From contig MFXP01000015.1 in assembly GCA_001787535.1 (NCBI GenBank), forward strand, positions 22,549 through 86,548: a stretch of DNA of 64,000 bases, written 5' to 3'. Below are positions 3,807 to 61,769 of the stretch, in pieces (positions within the stretch are counted from its first letter, which is position 1; each line of letters starts with the position of its first letter). The notes beneath the pieces were generated by a model, which saw nothing but the letters and a program-made list of their open reading frames with translations, searched no databases and was not told where the DNA came from. A program made the translations under genes and the position numbers. This stretch comes from Candidatus Peribacteria bacterium RIFCSPHIGHO2_01_FULL_51_35 (GTDB taxonomy: Bacteria > Patescibacteriota > Gracilibacteria > Peribacterales > Peribacteraceae).

Positions 3807-4415
3807 CTAACGCAGGAACGAGGAAACTTTCGGCAAAAACTTCCCCGTGCGCTTTGCATACTCTGCGTATTTATTTCCGTACGCATTCAGCAATGCGCGC
3901 TCTTCTATCGGAGTTCTCACAAACATCACAATTAAAATCATCAGCAAGAAACCCCCGCCCAGGAGCCAGTTCGCTGTCAGCAAGAAGATGCCTGTCCCCA
4001 ATAATAAAAACGAGAGATACATGGGATGTCGTACATACAAATACGGTCCCGTTGTAATGACATTTCCTCCCGGACGGATTTGAACTGTTCCGGTGAAGTT
4101 TCGGGAAAGATATTTCTGCACCCAAATAAGCATAATGATCCCCAAGACACTCAGGGCAAAACCACTCCAACGAACCTCCGGCACGAGCGCCAGTTGCGAC
4201 CATGTGAGCAACGGTGGCCATATGGCATATGCCAAAAATGCCAGTATCAATGGAAGACCAAGCAAAACTCGAAGATGACGAAACGATCCCTCCCCTTTGG
4301 TATTTTGTTTCACGCCCGATGCCGCGTCTGCATATCCACTGAAGTACATACGGATTGCGACAACCGCCATGAGCAAAAGCAGTGATGCTGTGTGAAATGG
4401 ATACTCAGCTTCCAT
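3807..4415 (-). CDS. isoprenylcysteine carboxyl / phospholipid methyltransferase family membrane protein
   Basis: Polytopic membrane protein with the RHPMYLSFLL..G motif typical of the ICMT/PEMT family. Confidence 0.7.
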   Translation of the reverse strand: MEAEYPFHTASLLLLMAVVAIRMYFSGYADAASGVKQNTKGEGSFRHLRVLLGLPLILAFLAYAIWPPLLTWSQLALVPEVRWSGFALSVLGIIMLIWVQKYLSRNFTGTVQIRPGGNVITTGPYLYVRHPMYLSFLLLGTGIFLLTANWLLGGGFLLMILIVMFVRTPIEERALLNAYGNKYAEYAKRTGKFLPKVSSFLR

Positions 4416-4439: not shown

Positions 4440-4709
4440 TCACTGCGATTGAGGTATCGCCTTAAGAGTTTCGCGCAACATGTGTTTCAAAGCCCCCTTC
4501 CCTTGTGTAGTCTTTAGATATTTTTCACGTCGAAGTGCGTCATCTTGAGAAATATATGCTTCAGCAAAGATGAGCTTCCATGGCCTCTTGGCTTTCGTTG
4601 AAGTGACACTGCCTTTGTTATGAGTTTCAAGTCGCTGTTTCAAGTCAGTTGTATAACCAACATAGAGCTGGTCATTTTGCTGACTTCGAAGAACATACAC
4701 TGTAAACAT
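4440..4709 (-). CDS. GIY-YIG nuclease family protein (small, stand-alone)
   Basis: MFTVYVLRS...LYVGYTTDLKQRLETHN... is the GIY-(10-11 aa)-YVG motif followed by R..H/N. The start is placed at the internal Met of ORF 4440-4736. Confidence 0.8.
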   Translation of the reverse strand: MFTVYVLRSQQNDQLYVGYTTDLKQRLETHNKGSVTSTKAKRPWKLIFAEAYISQDDALRREKYLKTTQGKGALKHMLRETLKAIPQSQ

Positions 4710-4870
4710 GGTCTTGCAATTATAGTCTCGTAACATGCATCCGCAACATACGGAACAAGCCCCGTAGTGTGCGCTTCGCGCAACTACAGGGCACGAAGCA
4801 TGCGCTGTGCCCCATTATCATTTCATAATTTCGTGGCCTGCCATGAAGTTGCGCCGCAGCGCATACTTCG

Positions 4871-4945
4871 TGGTGGTCCCGGCGGGAATCGAACCTGCAT
4901 TTACCCCTTAGGAGAGGGTCGTTCTATCCATTGAACTACAGGACC
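4871..4945 (-). tRNA. tRNA-Arg (anticodon CCU), CCA encoded
   Basis: The reverse complement folds as a cloverleaf: acceptor GGTCCTG/CGGGACC, D arm GTTC..GAAC, anticodon stem ACCCT/GGGGT with loop CTCCTAA, T loop TTCGATT. There is one A-C mismatch in the T stem. Confidence 0.75.
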
Positions 4946-7558: not shown

Positions 7559-8749
7559 ATGTTCCGCCGCATCGATTTTCTGCTCCTCGGCATCACGATA
7601 GTGTTGACATTCTTCGGCCTCGCGATGATCGCGAGCGTCAGCGTGTTCGAAAGCTACCAGATCACGCAGCGTCTGACGGATGAGGGCTTGCGCGCAGCGC
7701 CCACCAATTCCTTTTATCTATGGCGCAGCTTCCTCCACATCGTCGTCGGCATGTCCGCGATGACGGTGATGATCATCCTTCCGTATAAGATGTGGCAGCG
7801 TCTTGCTCGACCGCTGTTTCTCTTAAGCATCGTTCTTTTAATTGCGCTGTTTATTCCCGGCATCAGCGCGGGATACGGCAGCGCAGCCAGTTGGCTGCGC
7901 TTGGGTCCTTTTTCCTTGCAGCCATCGGAGGTTTTAAAGATCACGCTGATTTTTTATCTGGCGGTGTGGCTGCAGAAACGCGAGCAACTGATCGGAACGT
8001 TTAAGGAGGGATTCGTTCCGTTCGTGTCGCTCCTCGTTCTCTCCACACTGCTCGTCGCCATTCAACCGGACTTGGGTTCTTTCTTCGTCATTGCCGGCAT
8101 CGCGTGCGTCATGTTTTTCATTGCGGGAGGAAATCTGTTTCACCTGCTTATGGGCGGAGGCGCGGCGGCGCTCCTTGGCCTCCCGATCATTCTCAATAAA
8201 GAATATGTGCGAGCGCGCTTCATGGCATTCTTGAATCCCACGGACCCGAACATCTCGGAAACCATCGGATTCCAGATCAAGCAGGCGCTCATCGCCATCG
8301 GTTCCGGCGGGTTCTTTGGCGTCGGATACGGAAAATCCATTCAAAAATTCGGCTACCTGCCGGAAGTCCAAGCGGACATGGTCTTCTCCGCGATGGCGGA
8401 GGAGCTTGGTTTCTTTCGGGTCATGCTCGTGCTGCTGATGTACAGCATCCTCGTCATCCGAGGGTACAAGATCGCACAAGAAGCGCCGGATAGGTTCGGA
8501 TTCATGGTGGCAACGGGCATCACGACCTGGATAGCCTTTCAAACCATTGTGAACCTCGCAGTGAATCTTTCGCTCTTCCCACTCACAGGACTCACGTTGC
8601 CCTTCATCAGCTACGGAGGATCTTCGCTCGTGTCTATTTTGATCGGCGTCGGGGTGCTTCTGAATATTTCCATGCACTCGACGGAGGAAGCCAGCATGGC
8701 AAGAAGGGCGAGGAAGACGAAGGTGGGGATTAGAAAATTATTCGCCTGA
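7559..8749 (+). CDS. ftsW: FtsW/RodA/SpoVE family peptidoglycan glycosyltransferase
   Basis: Polytopic SEDS protein (..QPSE..K.., ..LPFISYGGSS..) upstream of murG. The start is set at ATG 7559 (MFRRIDFLLLG) because the longer ORF would overlap lspA. Confidence 0.85.
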   Translation: MFRRIDFLLLGITIVLTFFGLAMIASVSVFESYQITQRLTDEGLRAAPTNSFYLWRSFLHIVVGMSAMTVMIILPYKMWQRLARPLFLLSIVLLIALFIPGISAGYGSAASWLRLGPFSLQPSEVLKITLIFYLAVWLQKREQLIGTFKEGFVPFVSLLVLSTLLVAIQPDLGSFFVIAGIACVMFFIAGGNLFHLLMGGGAAALLGLPIILNKEYVRARFMAFLNPTDPNISETIGFQIKQALIAIGSGGFFGVGYGKSIQKFGYLPEVQADMVFSAMAEELGFFRVMLVLLMYSILVIRGYKIAQEAPDRFGFMVATGITTWIAFQTIVNLAVNLSLFPLTGLTLPFISYGGSSLVSILIGVGVLLNISMHSTEEASMARRARKTKVGIRKLFA

Positions 8750-13236: not shown

Positions 13237-13323
13237 TCTGATTAAATCCAACAACCAACAAGAGCGCGTCTTTTTATCCTGAGTGAGTCGAAGGACGACG
13301 CGCGATATTTACACATTTGGAAC

Positions 13324-31906: not shown

Positions 31907-31954
31907 AGTGCAATCTTAGAGGACATTTCGTCTAGATCAATTGCAGCCTCTTAA

Positions 31955-32015
31955 TGGTGCCCAGGAGAGGACCCTTCCTCGCTTCGCTCGTCAGGGCAGG
32001 CTTGAACCTTCACTT
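31955..32015 (-). repeat. duplicated 3' fragment of tRNA-Leu (acceptor/T-arm remnant with a ~29-nt insertion)
   Basis: TGGTGCCCAGGAGAGGAC (31955-31972) is identical to 32288-32305. A further CTTGAACCT match follows after the inserted CCTTCCTCGCTTCGCTCGTCAGGGCAGG. Confidence 0.85.
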
Positions 32016-32248
32016 TTCCATAGGCGCTCTTTCTTCTCTCGTCTCCATCCTTTGATTTCTTTTTCACGTTTTCGAGCTGAAACTCGATCGAGCCGAGGCT
32101 CCGACCAAATCAAGTGTTTCATGGGAATCTTCTTTGTGTGACTGCATGCAATTCCGGCAATGTGTTCGGAAAGACGTCTTTGAAGATTATCAGTATGCCC
32201 TACATAATAGGATCCATCTGCCAACTCTAGAATATAAACATGGAACAT
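31991..32248 (-). CDS. GIY-YIG nuclease family protein (small, stand-alone)
   Basis: MFHVYILELADGSYYVGHTDNLQRRLSEH... The start is at the internal Met; the longer track ORF would run into the tRNA. Confidence 0.8.
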   Translation of the reverse strand: MFHVYILELADGSYYVGHTDNLQRRLSEHIAGIACSHTKKIPMKHLIWSEPRLDRVSARKREKEIKGWRREKKERLWKSEGSSLP

Positions 32249-32287
32249 GGCTTGCCATGAGGAGGCCGCGTTGTCGCGGCCGACGAA

Positions 32288-32373
32288 TGGTGCCCAGGAG
32301 AGGACTTGAACCTCCAAGGGATTGCTCCCACCAGCTCCTAAGGCTGGCGTGTCTGCCATTTCACCACCTGGGC
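32288..32373 (-). tRNA. tRNA-Leu (anticodon UAG), long variable arm, CCA encoded
   Basis: The reverse complement is GCCCAGG-TG-GTGAAATGGCAGACAC-G-CCAGC-CTTAGGA-GCTGG-(long variable arm)-T arm GGTTCAAGTCC-...CCTGGGC-A-CCA. Confidence 0.9.
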
Positions 32374-33333: not shown

Positions 33334-33545
33334 TTCTCTTGATTATAGCAGAAATGGCGTTTAAATGCAATATACGACGAATGTGGGTGTGGGCTGTTCG
33401 CTGTGAATAACCTCACCCCCGGCCCCTCTCCTACCTGCCAATTCCATCATACAAAAACACACTGCCGACCAGGAGAGGGGTGAGTGCTGTATGCTATTTT
33501 CTTATGGTCTACGTAGAATCTCCGGCCAAACGCAGATGGCGAAAA

Positions 33546-33911
33546 ATGATCTACGCACGATTGCTGCGCAGGCGCATGACCGAAGCAGAGGCATTCCTTT
33601 GGAAAGCATTGCGATCCAGGCGGTTTGCTCACCTAAAATTTCGACGGCAGGTTCCCATCGATGTCTATATCGTCGATTTTCTATGTTGGGAATACCAATT
33701 AATTCTGGAAATTGATGGAGGCATTCACTTGTCCCAAAAAGACCGTGACCTCTTCCGTGAAGATGAGCTCGAAAAGCGAGGATTCACCATCTTACGTTTT
33801 ACAAATGAAGAAGTTCTCTCTCATCTCCATGGAGTTCTGACGACAATTGAAAATGTGATCAAACAAAAACACCAACATCCCCCTCTCCGGGTAAGCGAAG
33901 AGACCTTGTGA
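33546..33911 (+). CDS. DUF559 (Vsr-like fold) endonuclease-domain protein
   Basis: RRRMTEAEAFLWKALRSRRF...FRRQVPI..YIVDF......LILEIDGG.H......D..R...L...GF.ILRF.N.EV is the characteristic DUF559 pattern. Confidence 0.8.
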   Translation: MIYARLLRRRMTEAEAFLWKALRSRRFAHLKFRRQVPIDVYIVDFLCWEYQLILEIDGGIHLSQKDRDLFREDELEKRGFTILRFTNEEVLSHLHGVLTTIENVIKQKHQHPPLRVSEETL

Positions 33912-48919: not shown

Positions 48920-50851
48920 CTACACTTCTACGATAACGGGAATCATGATGGGCTCACGATCGAGCTTGCGATCGAAATACCTGTAGAGAGCGCCGGTGAC
49001 GGCGGACTTTAACGCTTTGCGTTCTGTCTCGCCTCTGTTCACCGCCTCTTCGTAGGCTTTCTTCGCTGTCTCTGTGACTTCCTTCGTGATGCTCTGTTGT
49101 TCGGATCCATAAATGAGTCCGCGCGAGAGGACATCCGGGTCGCCCACCAAACGTTTGCTGTCTGCGTATGCGCGGAAAAGTACGACCACCACACCGCCGT
49201 TGCTCATAACTTTGCGGTCCAGTAGCACACGCTGGCCTTCGCCTGCGCTGCCACGACCGTCAATGATGACGTCGTTGGCTGTGTGCTTGGTTTTGCTCTT
49301 GCGAGCGCCTTCGGCGTCGAACTCCAGGATCTCACCGTTCAAGAGAAGGTGGATCTGATTTTCTTGGTAGCCGATGGTGCGGACAAGATCCGCATGTCCC
49401 GCTTTCATATGCGGTTCACCGTGTTCGGGGATCACATGTTTTGCGCGCACCAGTCTGTGCATCAGGAGAATGTCATTTGCATAGCCGTGTCCCGTGGTAT
49501 GCAGCGCCAGTTCTTGGTTCGTCTTCACGATGGCGCCTTTCAGGTGAAGGTTGTTCACCACTTTTGCCACCGCGCGTTCGTTGCCGAGGATCGGATTGCT
49601 GCTGAGGATAACGGTGTCGCCCTTGCGGACGCTTACGTGCCGGTGCGTGCCAAGACCCATGCGGGCGAGACCTGCAGCCTCTTCTCCTTGGCTGCCCGTC
49701 GTGATGATGAGCACTTCGCTGTCGGGCAGTTTATCCATGCCCGGGCTCACTTTGCGGATAAGTCCGCGTGGTGCCTTGATGTAGCCCAAGTTCTGGGCGA
49801 TCTCCACGTTCGCTTCCATACTGCGGCCGGAGATGTACACTTTCCGGTTGAATTCATGAGCGTGTTCGATGACCTGTTCGATGCGGTTTAAAAGCGAGCT
49901 GAAAGTGGAGATAACCACGCGACCTTTGGCCTCGCGGATGAGATTCCTCAGTGTCTCCGAGATATCCTTCTCGCTTTTGCTGTTTCCCGGTTTCAATGCG
50001 TTCGTGGAATCAGCGATAATCGCGAGTACGCCCGCGTCGCCCAGTTCCGCAAGGCGAGAGAAGTCCGCAGGAGGTTCGTTCATGGGGGTGAGATCGAACT
50101 TGAAGTCACCCGTATGCACGATGGTTCCATACGGCGTGTGCACGGCGATGGCGGCGGAATCGGGAATGCTGTGCGTGACGCGCAGGAATTCCACTTCCAC
50201 TTTGCCGATCCTTATCTTCTCACGGAAATTCACCGTGTGCAGGTTGGCTTTCCCCGTCAGATGATCTTCATCCAAGCGTTTCTTCACCATGGCCATGGTG
50301 AGGCGCGTGCCGTAACACGGCGGGAAGTGGAGCGACGGCAGCAAGTGCTGCGCCGCGCCGATGTGATCGAGGTGTCCGTGCGTAAAGAGGACTGCTTTGA
50401 TGCGGTTCTCTCTTCCTTTCAAGCCGGAAATGTCCGGAATCAGGTAGTCGATTCCCAACATATCCTCGTCCGGGAACTGGAGTCCCAGGTCGATGATGTA
50501 GATGTCCTCATCCACTTCTATGACGAAGCAGTTGCGGCCGACTTGTTCAAAACCACCGAGAGGGTAGACCCGGAGATTCTGTTTCTTGCCACTCGGAGCA
50601 GCGACCGGCCGATGTTGTGGTTGGCTCGACGCGGGATTTCCCGGCTTACCGACGGGGTTTCTGCTGAATGCGGGTGCACCCTGCTGCGGACGAGGACTTG
50701 GTTGGCCAGGTCGAGGGGTTCCCGGTTGGCTTGTCCTGAGGTTCCCCGAAGGGCCGCCGTGGCGGCGTCGCTTGCGAAATCGGAAAAACCCCTTGGGCTT
50801 TCCTTGGTTTTGGCCGGCGGGAGGAACTCCCGGGCCGTTCTGTGGTGTCAT
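48920..50851 (-). CDS. rnj: ribonuclease J with a ~95-aa Pro/Gly/basic N-terminal extension
   Basis: The RNase J core starts at RVYPLGGFEQVGRNCF, followed by HGHLDHIG, a beta-CASP region and a C-terminal domain. It is preceded by low-complexity PGVPPAGQNQGKPKG...RPGQPSPRPQQG. Confidence 0.9.
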   Translation of the reverse strand: MTPQNGPGVPPAGQNQGKPKGFFRFRKRRRHGGPSGNLRTSQPGTPRPGQPSPRPQQGAPAFSRNPVGKPGNPASSQPQHRPVAAPSGKKQNLRVYPLGGFEQVGRNCFVIEVDEDIYIIDLGLQFPDEDMLGIDYLIPDISGLKGRENRIKAVLFTHGHLDHIGAAQHLLPSLHFPPCYGTRLTMAMVKKRLDEDHLTGKANLHTVNFREKIRIGKVEVEFLRVTHSIPDSAAIAVHTPYGTIVHTGDFKFDLTPMNEPPADFSRLAELGDAGVLAIIADSTNALKPGNSKSEKDISETLRNLIREAKGRVVISTFSSLLNRIEQVIEHAHEFNRKVYISGRSMEANVEIAQNLGYIKAPRGLIRKVSPGMDKLPDSEVLIITTGSQGEEAAGLARMGLGTHRHVSVRKGDTVILSSNPILGNERAVAKVVNNLHLKGAIVKTNQELALHTTGHGYANDILLMHRLVRAKHVIPEHGEPHMKAGHADLVRTIGYQENQIHLLLNGEILEFDAEGARKSKTKHTANDVIIDGRGSAGEGQRVLLDRKVMSNGGVVVVLFRAYADSKRLVGDPDVLSRGLIYGSEQQSITKEVTETAKKAYEEAVNRGETERKALKSAVTGALYRYFDRKLDREPIMIPVIVEV

Positions 50852-60294: not shown

Positions 60295-60327
60295 AAAAAA
60301 GCCTCTTCGTGTTGAAGAGGTTTCTTT
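60295..60327. terminator. bidirectional intrinsic terminator between the pilin gene and rnpB
   Basis: AAAAAA-G-CCTCTTC-gtgtt-GAAGAGG-TTTCTTT. Confidence 0.75.
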
Positions 60328-60826
60328 GTCCGCTCTTTCCTACGCCGGGTTCTGTCGTCGGTTGACTCTTATGCATCAGGAGTTAACCGAGGATGATCAT
60401 CTCTCTTGGACGGCAATTGCTCGCCGCCTCAAGCGGAGGGGTCTCTGGACTCGGGGAACCGCGAGGGATTCCGAAGACCCAAATCCTCCTTACACCACCT
60501 AGAGTTTACCAAGTCCCTTGCGGGGTCCTCCATTCTAGCTGGAGGCGTTTCACATGCCCTTGCGGGCTCGTCTCTGTGGTACTGGTCCTCACGCGTCTTT
60601 ACCGAATATATGATGCGCGGATGGGCGTTACCCACTAGGCGTTCCTACGACGACGGCTTGCCCTGAGAGAGCGAAGCGAATCGAAGGGTGCCCGGACGTT
60701 CCTCCCGCCTGCGCTCCTCACTTCGTTCGGAGCTACGGCGGGCAGGCTCCTTATGCACGGAGCTTGCCCACCGAAGTCTCTTTGCGAAGCAAAGAGCGTA
60801 GGCGGGCGATCATCGAAAGAGCGGAC
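60328..60826 (-). ncRNA. rnpB: RNase P RNA, bacterial type A, unusually long (~500 nt)
   Basis: On the minus strand: P1 GTCCGCTCTTTC/GAAAGAGCGGAC, CR-I GGAGGAACGTCCGGGC, GGGTAACGCC, GGTAAACTC and CR-V ACAGAACCCGGCGTA. Confidence 0.9.
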
Positions 60827-61147: not shown

Positions 61148-61769
61148 CCCCCGGCTCTGCCGGGGGAGTCCGGCTGGTTCTACCGTTCCGGGATTTTGCG
61201 TACAGTGAAAAGAGGGAAAGCTCCGAGCAGGGCATTACCCTCTTTTCAATCATGCGCTCATTCGCATCACAGAGTCATGTGGTATGGGACTGTAAATACC
61301 ACGTGGTCATTGTACCAAAGTACCGAAAGAAAAAACTCTACGGAGACACCCGCCAGCGCATTGGCCAGATCATCCGCAAACTTGCAGAAGAACGGCATAT
61401 CGTCGTTCTCGAAGGCCATGCGATGCCCGACCATATTCATCTTGTCCTCTCCATCCCACCCAGAGAAAGCGTCGCTGATGTCATGGGCTTCCTCAAAGGA
61501 AAAAGTGCTATCAGGGCACACTTTGAATTCTCAAAGAGGAAAGCACCGACACAACAGAAGCACTTCTGGAGCAGAGGCTACTTCGTCTCCACAGTAGGAA
61601 TCGATGAGGAGATGATCCGGAAGTACGTGAGAAACCAAGATGACAATGACAAGAGAGAGAACAACAACCCACCACTTGATCTGTACTGGAATTAGTGGTC
61701 ACCAGCTTTGAGTCTCTTTAGTAGCCCCTTCTAGGGGCTTTCCCGCAAAGCTACCGGCTCTGCCGGTAG
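61148..61769 (+). mobile_element. IS200/IS605-family element (tnpA only) bounded by related hairpins
   Basis: Left hairpin CCCCCGGCTCTGCCGGGGG (61148-61166) and right hairpin CTACCGGCTCTGCCGGTAG (61751-61769) share the core CCGGCTCTGCCGG. A 5'-UTR hairpin AGAGGG...CCCTCT sits just before the ATG. Confidence 0.75.
61252..61695 (+). CDS. tnpA: IS200/IS605 family Y1 transposase TnpA
   Basis: VWDCKYHVVIVPKYRKK, HAMPDHIHLVLSIPP (HUH) and a conserved WSRGYFVSTVG segment (the catalytic Tyr is expected in this region); 147 aa. Confidence 0.9.
   Translation: MRSFASQSHVVWDCKYHVVIVPKYRKKKLYGDTRQRIGQIIRKLAEERHIVVLEGHAMPDHIHLVLSIPPRESVADVMGFLKGKSAIRAHFEFSKRKAPTQQKHFWSRGYFVSTVGIDEEMIRKYVRNQDDNDKRENNNPPLDLYWN

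Follow-up and report, generated by a model that had tools for sequence, protein, structure and literature searches.

A minimal Slx1-like GIY-YIG gene between hairpin ends behind bacterial tRNA genes: a candidate mobile element

This study concerns a unit of about 0.33 kb that lies directly behind the tRNA-Leu(UAG) gene in a 64,000-nucleotide (nt) stretch of contig MFXP01000015.1 from Candidatus Peribacteria bacterium RIFCSPHIGHO2_01_FULL_51_35; this whole stretch is called the window, and its features are collected in Table 1. The tRNA gene is intact and its CCA is encoded (ARAGORN; Rfam tRNA model, 55.5 bits). The original prediction, made from the letters of the window, was that the last 18 nt of this tRNA recur on the far side of a small GIY-YIG gene. 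This was borne out by the repeat search, in which the 18 nt, together with the 2 bases just past CCA, proved to be part of an exact 20-nt direct repeat, AATGGTGCCCAGGAGAGGAC, with a spacing of 333. When 3 mismatches were permitted, the 18-mer was found at these two sites only in the 64 kb, and two matches were obtained in 0 of 100 shuffles. A second tRNA-like block, CTTGAACCT[T/C]CA, had also been claimed and was found at 32001-32012, matching the tRNA at 32305-32316 in 11 of 12 positions and lying 28-29 nt from the first block. Among the open reading frames (ORFs) of the 333 bp between the repeats, only the GIY-YIG ORF of 85 amino acids (aa) gave a family match (Pfam PF01541, E=3.2e-13). Its product has 100% identity to a protein of Candidatus Peribacteria bacterium RIFCSPHIGHO2_02_FULL_52_16. 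Its stop codon (31991-31993) and last codons fall in the tRNA-like T-arm fragment and the 28-nt insert, so the tRNA-derived fragment does encode the end of the protein, as had been proposed.

Read along the minus strand, the order is tRNA-Leu ending in CCA, a left end L of 39 nt, the ATG and the ORF, a segment "a", a right end R, the distal repeat copy b', TT, and unrelated flank. L begins at the first base past CCA and stops at the ATG. Segment "a" codes for part of the non-conserved C-terminal tail of the ORF. What had been read as a 29-nt insertion is R, the conserved right terminal hairpin of the element. The tRNA upstream is undamaged, and only the distal copy is split by R. The spacer between tRNA-Leu and the ORF has no promoter-like site able to serve the ORF and no terminator-like site; the single consensus promoter match on the ORF strand there would place the start of transcription within the ORF.

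The unit is no single curiosity and belongs to a large family. A protein search of species-representative genomes and Joint Genome Institute (JGI) metagenomes gave 160 loci, to which exact-protein look-ups added more; the loci carry L-numbers below, and all sequences are metagenome assemblies. Had GIY-YIG homologues elsewhere shown no association with tRNA genes, the original reading would have been refuted, but their link to tRNAs is strong: a same-strand tRNA lay no more than 250 nt upstream in 54 of the 160 loci, involving 19 tRNA species, and an opposite-strand tRNA in 2. The close relatives in the Peregrinibacteria (64-84% identity) have the identical build in every case. Thirteen related Peregrinibacteria elements stand directly behind a same-strand tRNA, and 7 tRNA species are involved; the target tRNAs are Leu-UAG (three times), Leu-CAA (three), Leu-CAG, Pro-CGG (three), Pro-UGG, Tyr-GUA (two), and Lys-UUU. 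After R, each of the 13 has a copy of the 3' end of its own adjacent tRNA (nt 60-76), beginning at position -17 or -18. The copy is exact at 11 of the 13 loci, with 17 of 19 positions matching in L083 and 24 of 26 in L005. Past the duplicate, these loci have 0-6 nt of L or an entire L.

The tRNA-end copy mirrors single-base differences between orthologous tRNAs (L002 versus L081, L004/L085 versus L082, and the window versus L161). At the same time, an element and its nearest protein relative have their tRNA species in common in only 2 of 14 cases, and the least diverged pair (dN 0.09, dS 0.88) consists of a Leu-CAA and a Leu-UAG element. Because the duplicate tracks single-base differences of the tRNA and protein kinship ignores tRNA identity, we believed that the duplicate is specified by the target and is not inherited with the element. 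For the same reason, a duplication made from the target at each insertion is favored over a fixed attP/attB pair, and an attP of constant sequence carried by the element is disfavored. The idea of an insertion aimed at the tRNA 3' end was thus supported, with seven tRNA species each repeating their own last 17 nt.

Both ends of the element are palindromic. L has the general form TTCGTC, a GC-rich hairpin, and CTCCTCATGGCAAGCC; the hairpin is perfect, measures 4-7 bp, and has another sequence in nearly every element. L is kept in 17 related elements, in which the hairpin sequence is free yet always paired. In the window, nearest-neighbor energies support the fold of L as DNA (z=-3.1 and -3.3), with an outer stem CCAT/ATGG that uses the CCA of the tRNA. 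R has the general form GCTTGCCCTGA, a mini-hairpin, and GAAGG(G/A), and its proposed fold consists of CCCT/AGGG, tandem G·A, one closing pair, tandem G·A, GC/GC, and a 3-nt loop. In 14 R sequences picked for their common 25-nt layout, 93.9% of the cells were paired, compensatory change was seen in 4 of 7 pairs (among them C-G or G-C at the closing pair and C-G or U-A at the outer one), and the GA dinucleotides were invariant. This degree of pairing was matched by 0 of 500 shuffles and by no slid register. Since the reverse complement of R aligns with L, the two ends are imperfect terminal inverted repeats; in L002, for example, TTCGTCG..CTCCTCATGGCAAGC faces GCTTGCCCTGAGGAG..CGACGAA. L and R are conserved across elements though the synonymous sites of the ORF are mostly saturated. 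The hairpins match no Rfam family (E<=1-10). We also considered R as a hammerhead ribozyme (CUGANGA..GA) and rejected it, as there was no Rfam match at E<=10 and position "14", which is an invariant A in hammerheads, pairs and covaries with position "7" (GC 9, CG 5). Likewise rejected was a tRNA-like minihelix formed by a-R-b', in which the 5' strand of the acceptor is missing and no consistent pairing between R and the duplicate is found across loci.

Several loci carry signs of turnover. In L004, two tandem copies are identical at 330 of 330 positions, with a third, solo L behind them. The second L of L003 is degenerate and precedes an ORF-less L-a-R unit with an additional copy of the tRNA end. 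A solo L stands behind tRNA-Arg(CCG) in L005 and after the duplicate in L003, L161, L082, L175, and L178. A remnant in L077 consists of L and 29 codons fused to another gene, and L006 has a degraded ORF with two R ends. The L motif occurs in 2-4 tandem repeats in L002, L086, L178, and L179; in L178 (1278-1500) and L086 (1-100), three to four tandem copies of the inner part of L (..CTCATGGCAAGCC and a further 20-40 nt) lie between the tRNA and the ORF. Solo R hairpins are found away from tRNAs, and two of them have flanking direct repeats of 15-18 nt. One element, with an identical protein throughout, has two alternative upstream contexts, one in L170, L171, L173, and L174 and the other in L172. 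Identity between the two groups is 100% over the element, its tRNA-Pro(UGG)-type duplicate, and 1.5 kb downstream, and it begins 7 nt before L. Their upstream DNA is unrelated: one group has tRNA-Pro(UGG) there, and the other has a gene of a different kind. The breakpoint lies at the CCA|L junction, with CCGACCA in common.

Related genomes were compared for unoccupied sites. The closest relative by AspS (94% aa, 87% nt identity), L165, has a different GIY-YIG gene behind the orthologous tRNA-Leu(UAG), one that resembles the second copy in the window, behind tRNA-Arg(CCU). A more distant relative, L168, has tRNA-Leu(UAG) without GIY-YIG in a non-syntenic position. Neither the AspS-anchored relatives nor the only two homologues of the 161-aa downstream gene, for which the one contig found was too short, provided an exact pair of filled and empty alleles. 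In L168, about 200 nt past the GIY-YIG-free tRNA-Leu(UAG) (8500-8703, minus strand) are rich in palindromes containing CACGTGGC.

The protein was assigned by profile, sequence, and fold. It matched PF01541 with 50.2 bits against a cutoff of 22.6, over profile positions 2-76 of 78; the domain spans ORF residues 2-73, and the tail, which derives from tRNA sequence, has a predicted local distance difference test score (pLDDT) below 50. Among 46 homologues, Y15, G17, R25, and H29 are invariant and Y5, E50, R61, and E62 are at least 90% conserved, and the catalytic Tyr, Arg, His, and Glu are kept in 19 of 19 type-1 ORFs. With dN/dS of about 0.1, the ORF is, by this measure, under purifying selection. 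The label of a homing-endonuclease-like gene, given earlier, was not upheld. The only sequence matches found by phmmer among PDB structures were the UPF0213 proteins 1ZG2 (E=2.3e-9) and 1YWL. The AlphaFold2 model (pLDDT 83.2; order E-E-H-H-E-H-H with a disordered tail) has the helix-flanked, three-stranded sheet of the GIY-YIG fold and was ranked by Foldseek closest to 1ZG2 (E=6.8e-5) and 1YWL, followed by Slx1-Slx4 (6SEH and 7CQ3; probability 0.97-0.98), UvrC (0.60), and I-TevI (0.21). Dunin-Horkawicz et al. have placed 1ZG2 and 1YWL in the prokaryotic Slx1-like group, which is minimal and mostly vertically inherited, and have derived the selfish GIY-YIG enzymes from another lineage, that of UvrC (PMC1564403). 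The protein is thus predicted to be a minimal nuclease of the Slx1/UPF0213 type, not of the I-TevI type, with neither the C-terminal Asn module nor extra domains. The 85-aa ORF contains no DNA-binding module of the I-TevI/Seg kind, and the element, in which GIY-YIG is the only such gene, contains no known transposase (DDE, HUH, serine, or tyrosine). As claimed from the start, there is no integrase: we found no tyrosine or serine recombinase in or beside the 333 bp or among the neighbors of 10 related loci.

The wider family differs between lineages. In other phyla of the candidate phyla radiation (CPR), homologues with recognizably the same ends exactly fill the spacers between two tRNA genes, such as Phe-Gly, Leu-Pro, and Pro-Gly. 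The ends there are ACTTC-hairpin-TCAGKGTAAAC and GTTTACRCTGA-GGAGCnnAGCGAC-GAAG, with L beginning right behind the upstream tRNA and R abutting position +1 of the next. In Verrucomicrobia (L024, L040, L043, L053, L100, L137, and L140), tRNA-Asn(GUU) is followed by 6 nt, the GIY-YIG ORF, and a nearly complete second tRNA-Asn, which is exact over 42 nt and has a 7-bp hairpin, TCCCGAC-nnn-GTCGGGA, in place of half the anticodon arm; the stop codon of the GIY-YIG ORF lies inside the D-arm of this second copy. The same loci have a tRNA-Met with a more distant GIY-YIG subfamily and a duplication of 24-31 nt. By lineage, the duplication length is 0, 16-18, about 31, or 42-67 nt. In Sphingomonads and other Proteobacteria, there is no tRNA, and the ORF lies between inverted copies of GTTCGCCCTGAGCYTGTCGAAGGGC, sometimes as doublets. 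Across the family, a strict hairpin within 150 nt on both sides of the ORF was present at 40 of 139 loci, where 0.01 were expected, and on one side at 52 more; the flanking hairpins were inverted in 33 of the 40 two-sided loci. A looser hairpin pattern had a background of 2.4 per kb and was replaced by this strict definition.

Some further observations were made on these relatives. The tRNA-free homologues flanked by GTTCGCCCTGAGCYTGTCGAAGGGC include L028, L033, L036, L041, L049, and others, from Sphingomonads, Burkholderiales, and Acidobacteria. Translated in frame, GTTCGCCCTGAGCYTGTCGAAGGGC gives VRPEPVEG or LSLSKG, which may be a source of spurious ORF extensions. In L069 (about 4255-4290), R precedes 22 nt that are a diverged copy of the 5' portion of the downstream tRNA-Thr, so that the duplication is on the other side. 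In L051 (Planctomycetales), two direct copies of a 55-nt palindromic motif, CATTTACCCCGAGGAGCGA..AGCGACGAGGGGTTTAA, are present, one ahead of the ORF and one past a 16-nt copy of the tRNA-Leu(UAA) end.

The window itself holds further copies (Table 1). The second, divergent unit (ORF, phmmer E=2e-7) has an L-like palindrome, CGAAGT..ACTTCATGGCAGGCC (4835-4870), behind tRNA-Arg(CCU), along with more hairpins, one with a GCGAAGC core, and a TATAAT-like box. No copy of the tRNA-Arg end was found past the ORF. The solo R-type hairpin at 60656-60688 overlaps the 5' end of a bacterial RNase P RNA (60325-60675, minus strand; 97.4 bits), which was missed at the default threshold because its score is just below the Rfam gathering score of 100. 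GC-rich palindromes are clustered at 60690-60810 (plus strand), in the interval from the RNase P RNA to tRNA-Thr, and some of them are like the element ends, such as GGAGCTTGCCCACCGAAG.. and CGGCGGGCAGGCTCC. About 280 nt downstream of tRNA-Thr(UGU) lies an IS200/IS605-type TnpA ORF (61252-61695, plus strand; NF033573), which scored 138 bits with the IS200 model and 36 bits, below the cutoff of 80, with the model of REP-associated tyrosine transposases (RAYTs), where REP stands for repetitive extragenic palindromic. With GIY-YIG behind tRNA-Leu and tRNA-Arg and TnpA behind tRNA-Thr, each of the three tRNA genes of the window has a gene for a small nuclease or transposase behind it. At 1.1 kb from tRNA-Leu lies a DUF559 (Vsr-like endonuclease) ORF (33480-33911, plus strand; E=8.7e-36), which belongs to another family of small stand-alone nucleases.

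Table 1. Features of the putative element and of related sequences in the window
Feature	Coordinates	Strand	Description
tRNA-Leu(UAG)	32288..32373	-	Putative target and host gene of the element; ARAGORN, Rfam
Proximal direct-repeat copy b	32286..32305	-	tRNA nt 59/60-76 and first 2 nt of L; exact 20-nt repeat
Left end L	32249..32287	-	TTCGTC, GC hairpin GGCCGCG-ACAA-CGCGGCC (32264-32281), TCCTCATGGCAAGCC
GIY-YIG ORF, Slx1/UPF0213 type (predicted)	31991..32248	-	85 aa; PF01541
Segment "a" TGAAGGTTCAAG	32001..32012	-	Copy of tRNA T-stem 5' strand and T-loop, 11/12
Right end R GCCTGCCCTGA-CGAGCGAAGCGAG-GAAGGG	31972..32001	-	Imperfect inverted copy of L; holds the stop codon
Distal direct-repeat copy b' (G)TCCTCTCCTGGGCACCA	31953..31972	-	tRNA nt 59/60-76 and TT, directly abutting R
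Second, divergent unit	4440..4945	-	tRNA-Arg(CCU) 4871-4945; GIY-YIG ORF 4440-4712
Solo R-type hairpin GCTTGCCCTGAGAGAGCGAAGCGAATCGAAGGG	60656..60688	+	On the other strand preceded by tRNA-end-like ..GGGCACCC
Solo minimal CTGA..GAAG hairpin TCCTGAGTGAGTCGAAGGA	13277..13295	+	Intergenic; nested in larger palindrome GCGCGTC..GACGCGC
Similar minimal hairpin	50734..50753	+	Intergenic

From the sequence comparison, we believed that the unit is most likely a hairpin-ended mobile element that encodes its own nuclease and uses tRNA 3' ends as insertion sites, with duplication of 17 nt of the target; we lean toward this reading by somewhat more than an even chance. Insertion would take place immediately past the tRNA, and the last 17 nt would be copied from the target. 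In one possible route, one strand would be broken after nt 76 and the other near nt 59/60, about 17 bp away, with subsequent fill-in. In another, equally possible route, two template switches would be guided by microhomology, CCA(T) at L and G-TCC at R. The nuclease, of the structure-specific Slx1 type, may attack the palindromic ends as well as, in tRNA genes, the T-arm/acceptor region. The palindromic ends, with hairpin bases that coincide with the element boundaries, would be natural substrates for such an enzyme. The same 17-18 nt of tRNA are copied in the primer-binding sites of retroviruses, and we regard this match of boundaries as a coincidence until tested. The ORF would lack its own promoter and probably depends for its expression on read-through transcription that starts at the tRNA promoter; 3' processing of the tRNA would release an mRNA with terminal hairpins. 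Read-through fits the invariable orientation of the elements and the coincidence of the ends in CPR arrays with tRNA-processing sites. Since the tRNA is left intact, the cost of an insertion to the host would be low.

Several points weigh against this interpretation. The evidence for mobility is entirely comparative, and we infer the mechanism. Apart from the tandem pair and the L170/L172 case, the copies are old, with dS mostly saturated, and recent jumps within one genome are accordingly not seen. Three elements have no upstream tRNA, and their left flank has just 6-7 nt in common with the duplicate (..CGACCA and ..GCACCA in the two besides the L172 type), so that a secondary rearrangement would be needed for them. 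Segment "a" lies inside the element, and yet its T-loop variant goes with the local tRNA (TTCAAG in 3 of 3 versus 0 of 8, the alternative being TTCGAG), which a simple 17-nt target duplication does not predict. Nor is the duplication length a constant of the family, as there is none in the CPR-wide relatives between two tRNA genes and 30-67 nt in the Verrucomicrobial ones. The 85-aa catalytic domain has no evident DNA-binding or strand-transfer module. Finally, the R hairpin of the window has z=+1.2 by nearest-neighbor DNA energies, which is not significant; thermodynamic support was thus not obtained, and the structure of R rests on covariation.

It is possible, though we consider it unlikely, that the unit is instead a homing cassette with built-in arms, in which the nuclease cuts an unoccupied tRNA gene in or near the T-loop and repair of the double-strand break copies the cassette from an allele that is already occupied. 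The intact tRNA would then serve as the left arm and the distal 17-nt copy, with "a", as the right arm, while R would disrupt the distal site. The distal a-R-b' does resemble a T-arm split at 59/60 by an insertion, and the distal copy in Verrucomicrobia is nearly a whole tRNA-Asn with a hairpin in its anticodon arm. In CPR arrays, the neighboring tRNA genes could be natural arms, and there is no duplication there; selection for competence in homing could be the reason why the duplicate is so exact elsewhere. Homing enzymes of the GIY-YIG kind are known from tRNA clusters, such as SegB of phage T4 (PMC2330249). However, the upstream tRNA is intact, so the cut site would survive in occupied alleles, and a right arm of 17 nt is very short. 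As protein kinship ignores tRNA identity (2 of 14), every one of the many switches would require the replacement of both arms. The protein is without the DNA-binding domains of known GIY-YIG homing enzymes, its fold is nearer to Slx1 than to I-TevI, and the solo R hairpins with flanking repeats of their own would be left unexplained.

The original prediction was closer to a non-autonomous integrative element that moves in trans, as a circle with an attP-like R-b'-L, and recombines with the tRNA 3' end by means of a recombinase from the host or a helper, which would give attL and attR, with the GIY-YIG gene as cargo. We judged this improbable. At many integrase sites, direct repeats run from the T-loop to the tRNA 3' end, and the repeats here are similar in their extent. 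In many loci, the duplicate is followed by 1-6 nt of L or a whole L, as if R-b'-L were contiguous in an intermediate; the 6-7-nt identity at the left junction of the tRNA-less elements resembles secondary attachment sites; and tandem arrays occur. Against this, no integrase is present in or near the element here or in related loci, and an attP that is carried along cannot explain a duplicate that matches any adjacent tRNA among seven while the proteins are intermixed. The identity begins at nt 60 and does not cover the T-loop, and inverted-repeat ends are typical of transposons, not of attP.

To a role at the RNA level we likewise gave little weight. Here a resident gene would have its mRNA cut from the tRNA precursor, L and R would stabilize or regulate it, the tRNA-like 3' tail would be a signal for processing or stability, and the host would have taken the nuclease into its own service, a domestication like that proposed for RAYTs. 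The constant same-strand orientation with a spacer that has no promoter or terminator, the coincidence of L and R boundaries in CPR arrays with sites cut by tRNA-processing enzymes, the strong purifying selection, and the G·T pairs in R stems, which fit a structure of one strand, are all consistent with this, and mostly vertical inheritance has been reported for prokaryotic Slx1-like proteins (PMC1564403). A fixed functional module would nevertheless not be expected to have copies that are truncated, tandem, without the ORF, or reduced to a solo end, to turn over between close relatives, or to have duplicates in decay (17 of 19 in L083). With no 5' strand of the acceptor in a-R-b', a tRNA-like substrate is not possible. 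Moreover, this explanation accounts for expression and not for origin, and it is compatible with mobility. It is hardly credible that slippage made a partial copy of tRNA-Leu with a GIY-YIG gene between by accident: the nearly full second tRNA in Verrucomicrobia may recall such an event, but boundaries are constant at 13 loci and 7 tRNAs, conserved ends abut both repeat copies, and an exact match of 17-20 nt is no chance event. The fragment is therefore not, in this family, the remnant of an unrelated tandem tRNA duplication, and the same constancy of boundaries at 13 loci leaves an insertion of R into a pre-existing tandem tRNA duplicate unsupported.

Returning to the mobile, hairpin-ended element, a wider proposal can be made tentatively, and we hold it to be possible rather than probable. 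In this proposal, the family would be a new class of autonomous bacterial mobile elements, in which the only protein, a predicted 85-residue Slx1-like nuclease with structure-specific action, works on its own G·A-rich hairpin ends. In CPR bacteria, tRNA genes would provide the insertion sites, with 17-18 nt duplicated, as well as the promoter and the RNA-processing signals; in other phyla, the family would form a system like that of REP sequences and RAYTs with a different enzyme. If this is true, the element of about 330 bp would be among the smallest protein-coding mobile elements known to us, and it would be driven by a nuclease family so far seen as housekeeping, the vertically inherited Slx1 homologue of unknown bacterial function. 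The large UPF0213/YhbQ family would gain a testable role, and a common source of spurious small ORFs and repeats near these genes would be explained. The family would also be a second, non-HUH case of a nuclease with cognate dispersed hairpin repeats, and an example of a parasite that occupies tRNA genes harmlessly and relies on the transcription and processing of the tRNA to express its own gene. Tool builders might be interested in so small a nuclease, given its defined DNA hairpin partner and the precise register of insertion. In the published full-text literature (subscription-only papers being outside the scope), we found nothing that links this protein family to tRNA genes, hairpin repeats, or mobility.

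Some known systems share parts of this organization. The prokaryotic Slx1-like/UPF0213 proteins (YhbQ, COG2827; 1ZG2 and 1YWL) and eukaryotic Slx1 are alike in sequence, fold, and minimal domain. That family has been described as vertically inherited and of the repair type (PMC1564403), whereas here the gene lies in a hairpin-bounded unit with signatures of insertion at tRNA genes. The seg genes of phage T4, including SegB in the T4 tRNA cluster, are likewise lone, selfish GIY-YIG genes beside tRNAs with no integrase or transposase (PMC2330249). Enzymes of the Seg/I-TevI kind, however, have 200-250 aa and DNA-binding modules, with no terminal inverted repeats and no target duplication; the present element has 85 aa, hairpin ends like terminal inverted repeats, a 17-nt duplication, and an intact target gene. 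The tRNA elements of tyrosine integrases are also flanked by direct repeats of the tRNA 3' end and keep the tRNA functional. The present element differs from them in having no integrase, a size of 0.33 kb instead of kilobases, a repeat that varies with the adjacent tRNA, and inverted-repeat ends.

The REP/REPIN-RAYT systems similarly have a small nuclease gene between inverted short palindromes that are also dispersed as solo copies. In contrast to them, the enzyme here is GIY-YIG and not HUH/Y1, the CTGA..GAAG hairpin with tandem G·A is unrelated to the GTAG/CGTC REPs, and the CPR unit is tied to the ends of tRNA genes and leaves putative target duplications. Casposons have terminal inverted repeats and a target-site duplication of 14-15 bp, and some of them lie at tRNA gene 3' ends. 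They thus share with the present element inverted ends, a long duplication, and, in some cases, insertion at the tRNA 3' end, but casposons measure several to tens of kilobases and carry Cas1 and a polymerase, whereas the present element has 0.33 kb and one GIY-YIG gene. Elements of the IS200/IS605 group are likewise very small, have hairpin-forming ends, and insert 3' of a short specific sequence. Their hairpins are on one strand, they make no target duplication, and they use a Y1 transposase, whereas the element behind tRNA-Leu has inverted ends, a duplication, and another enzyme.

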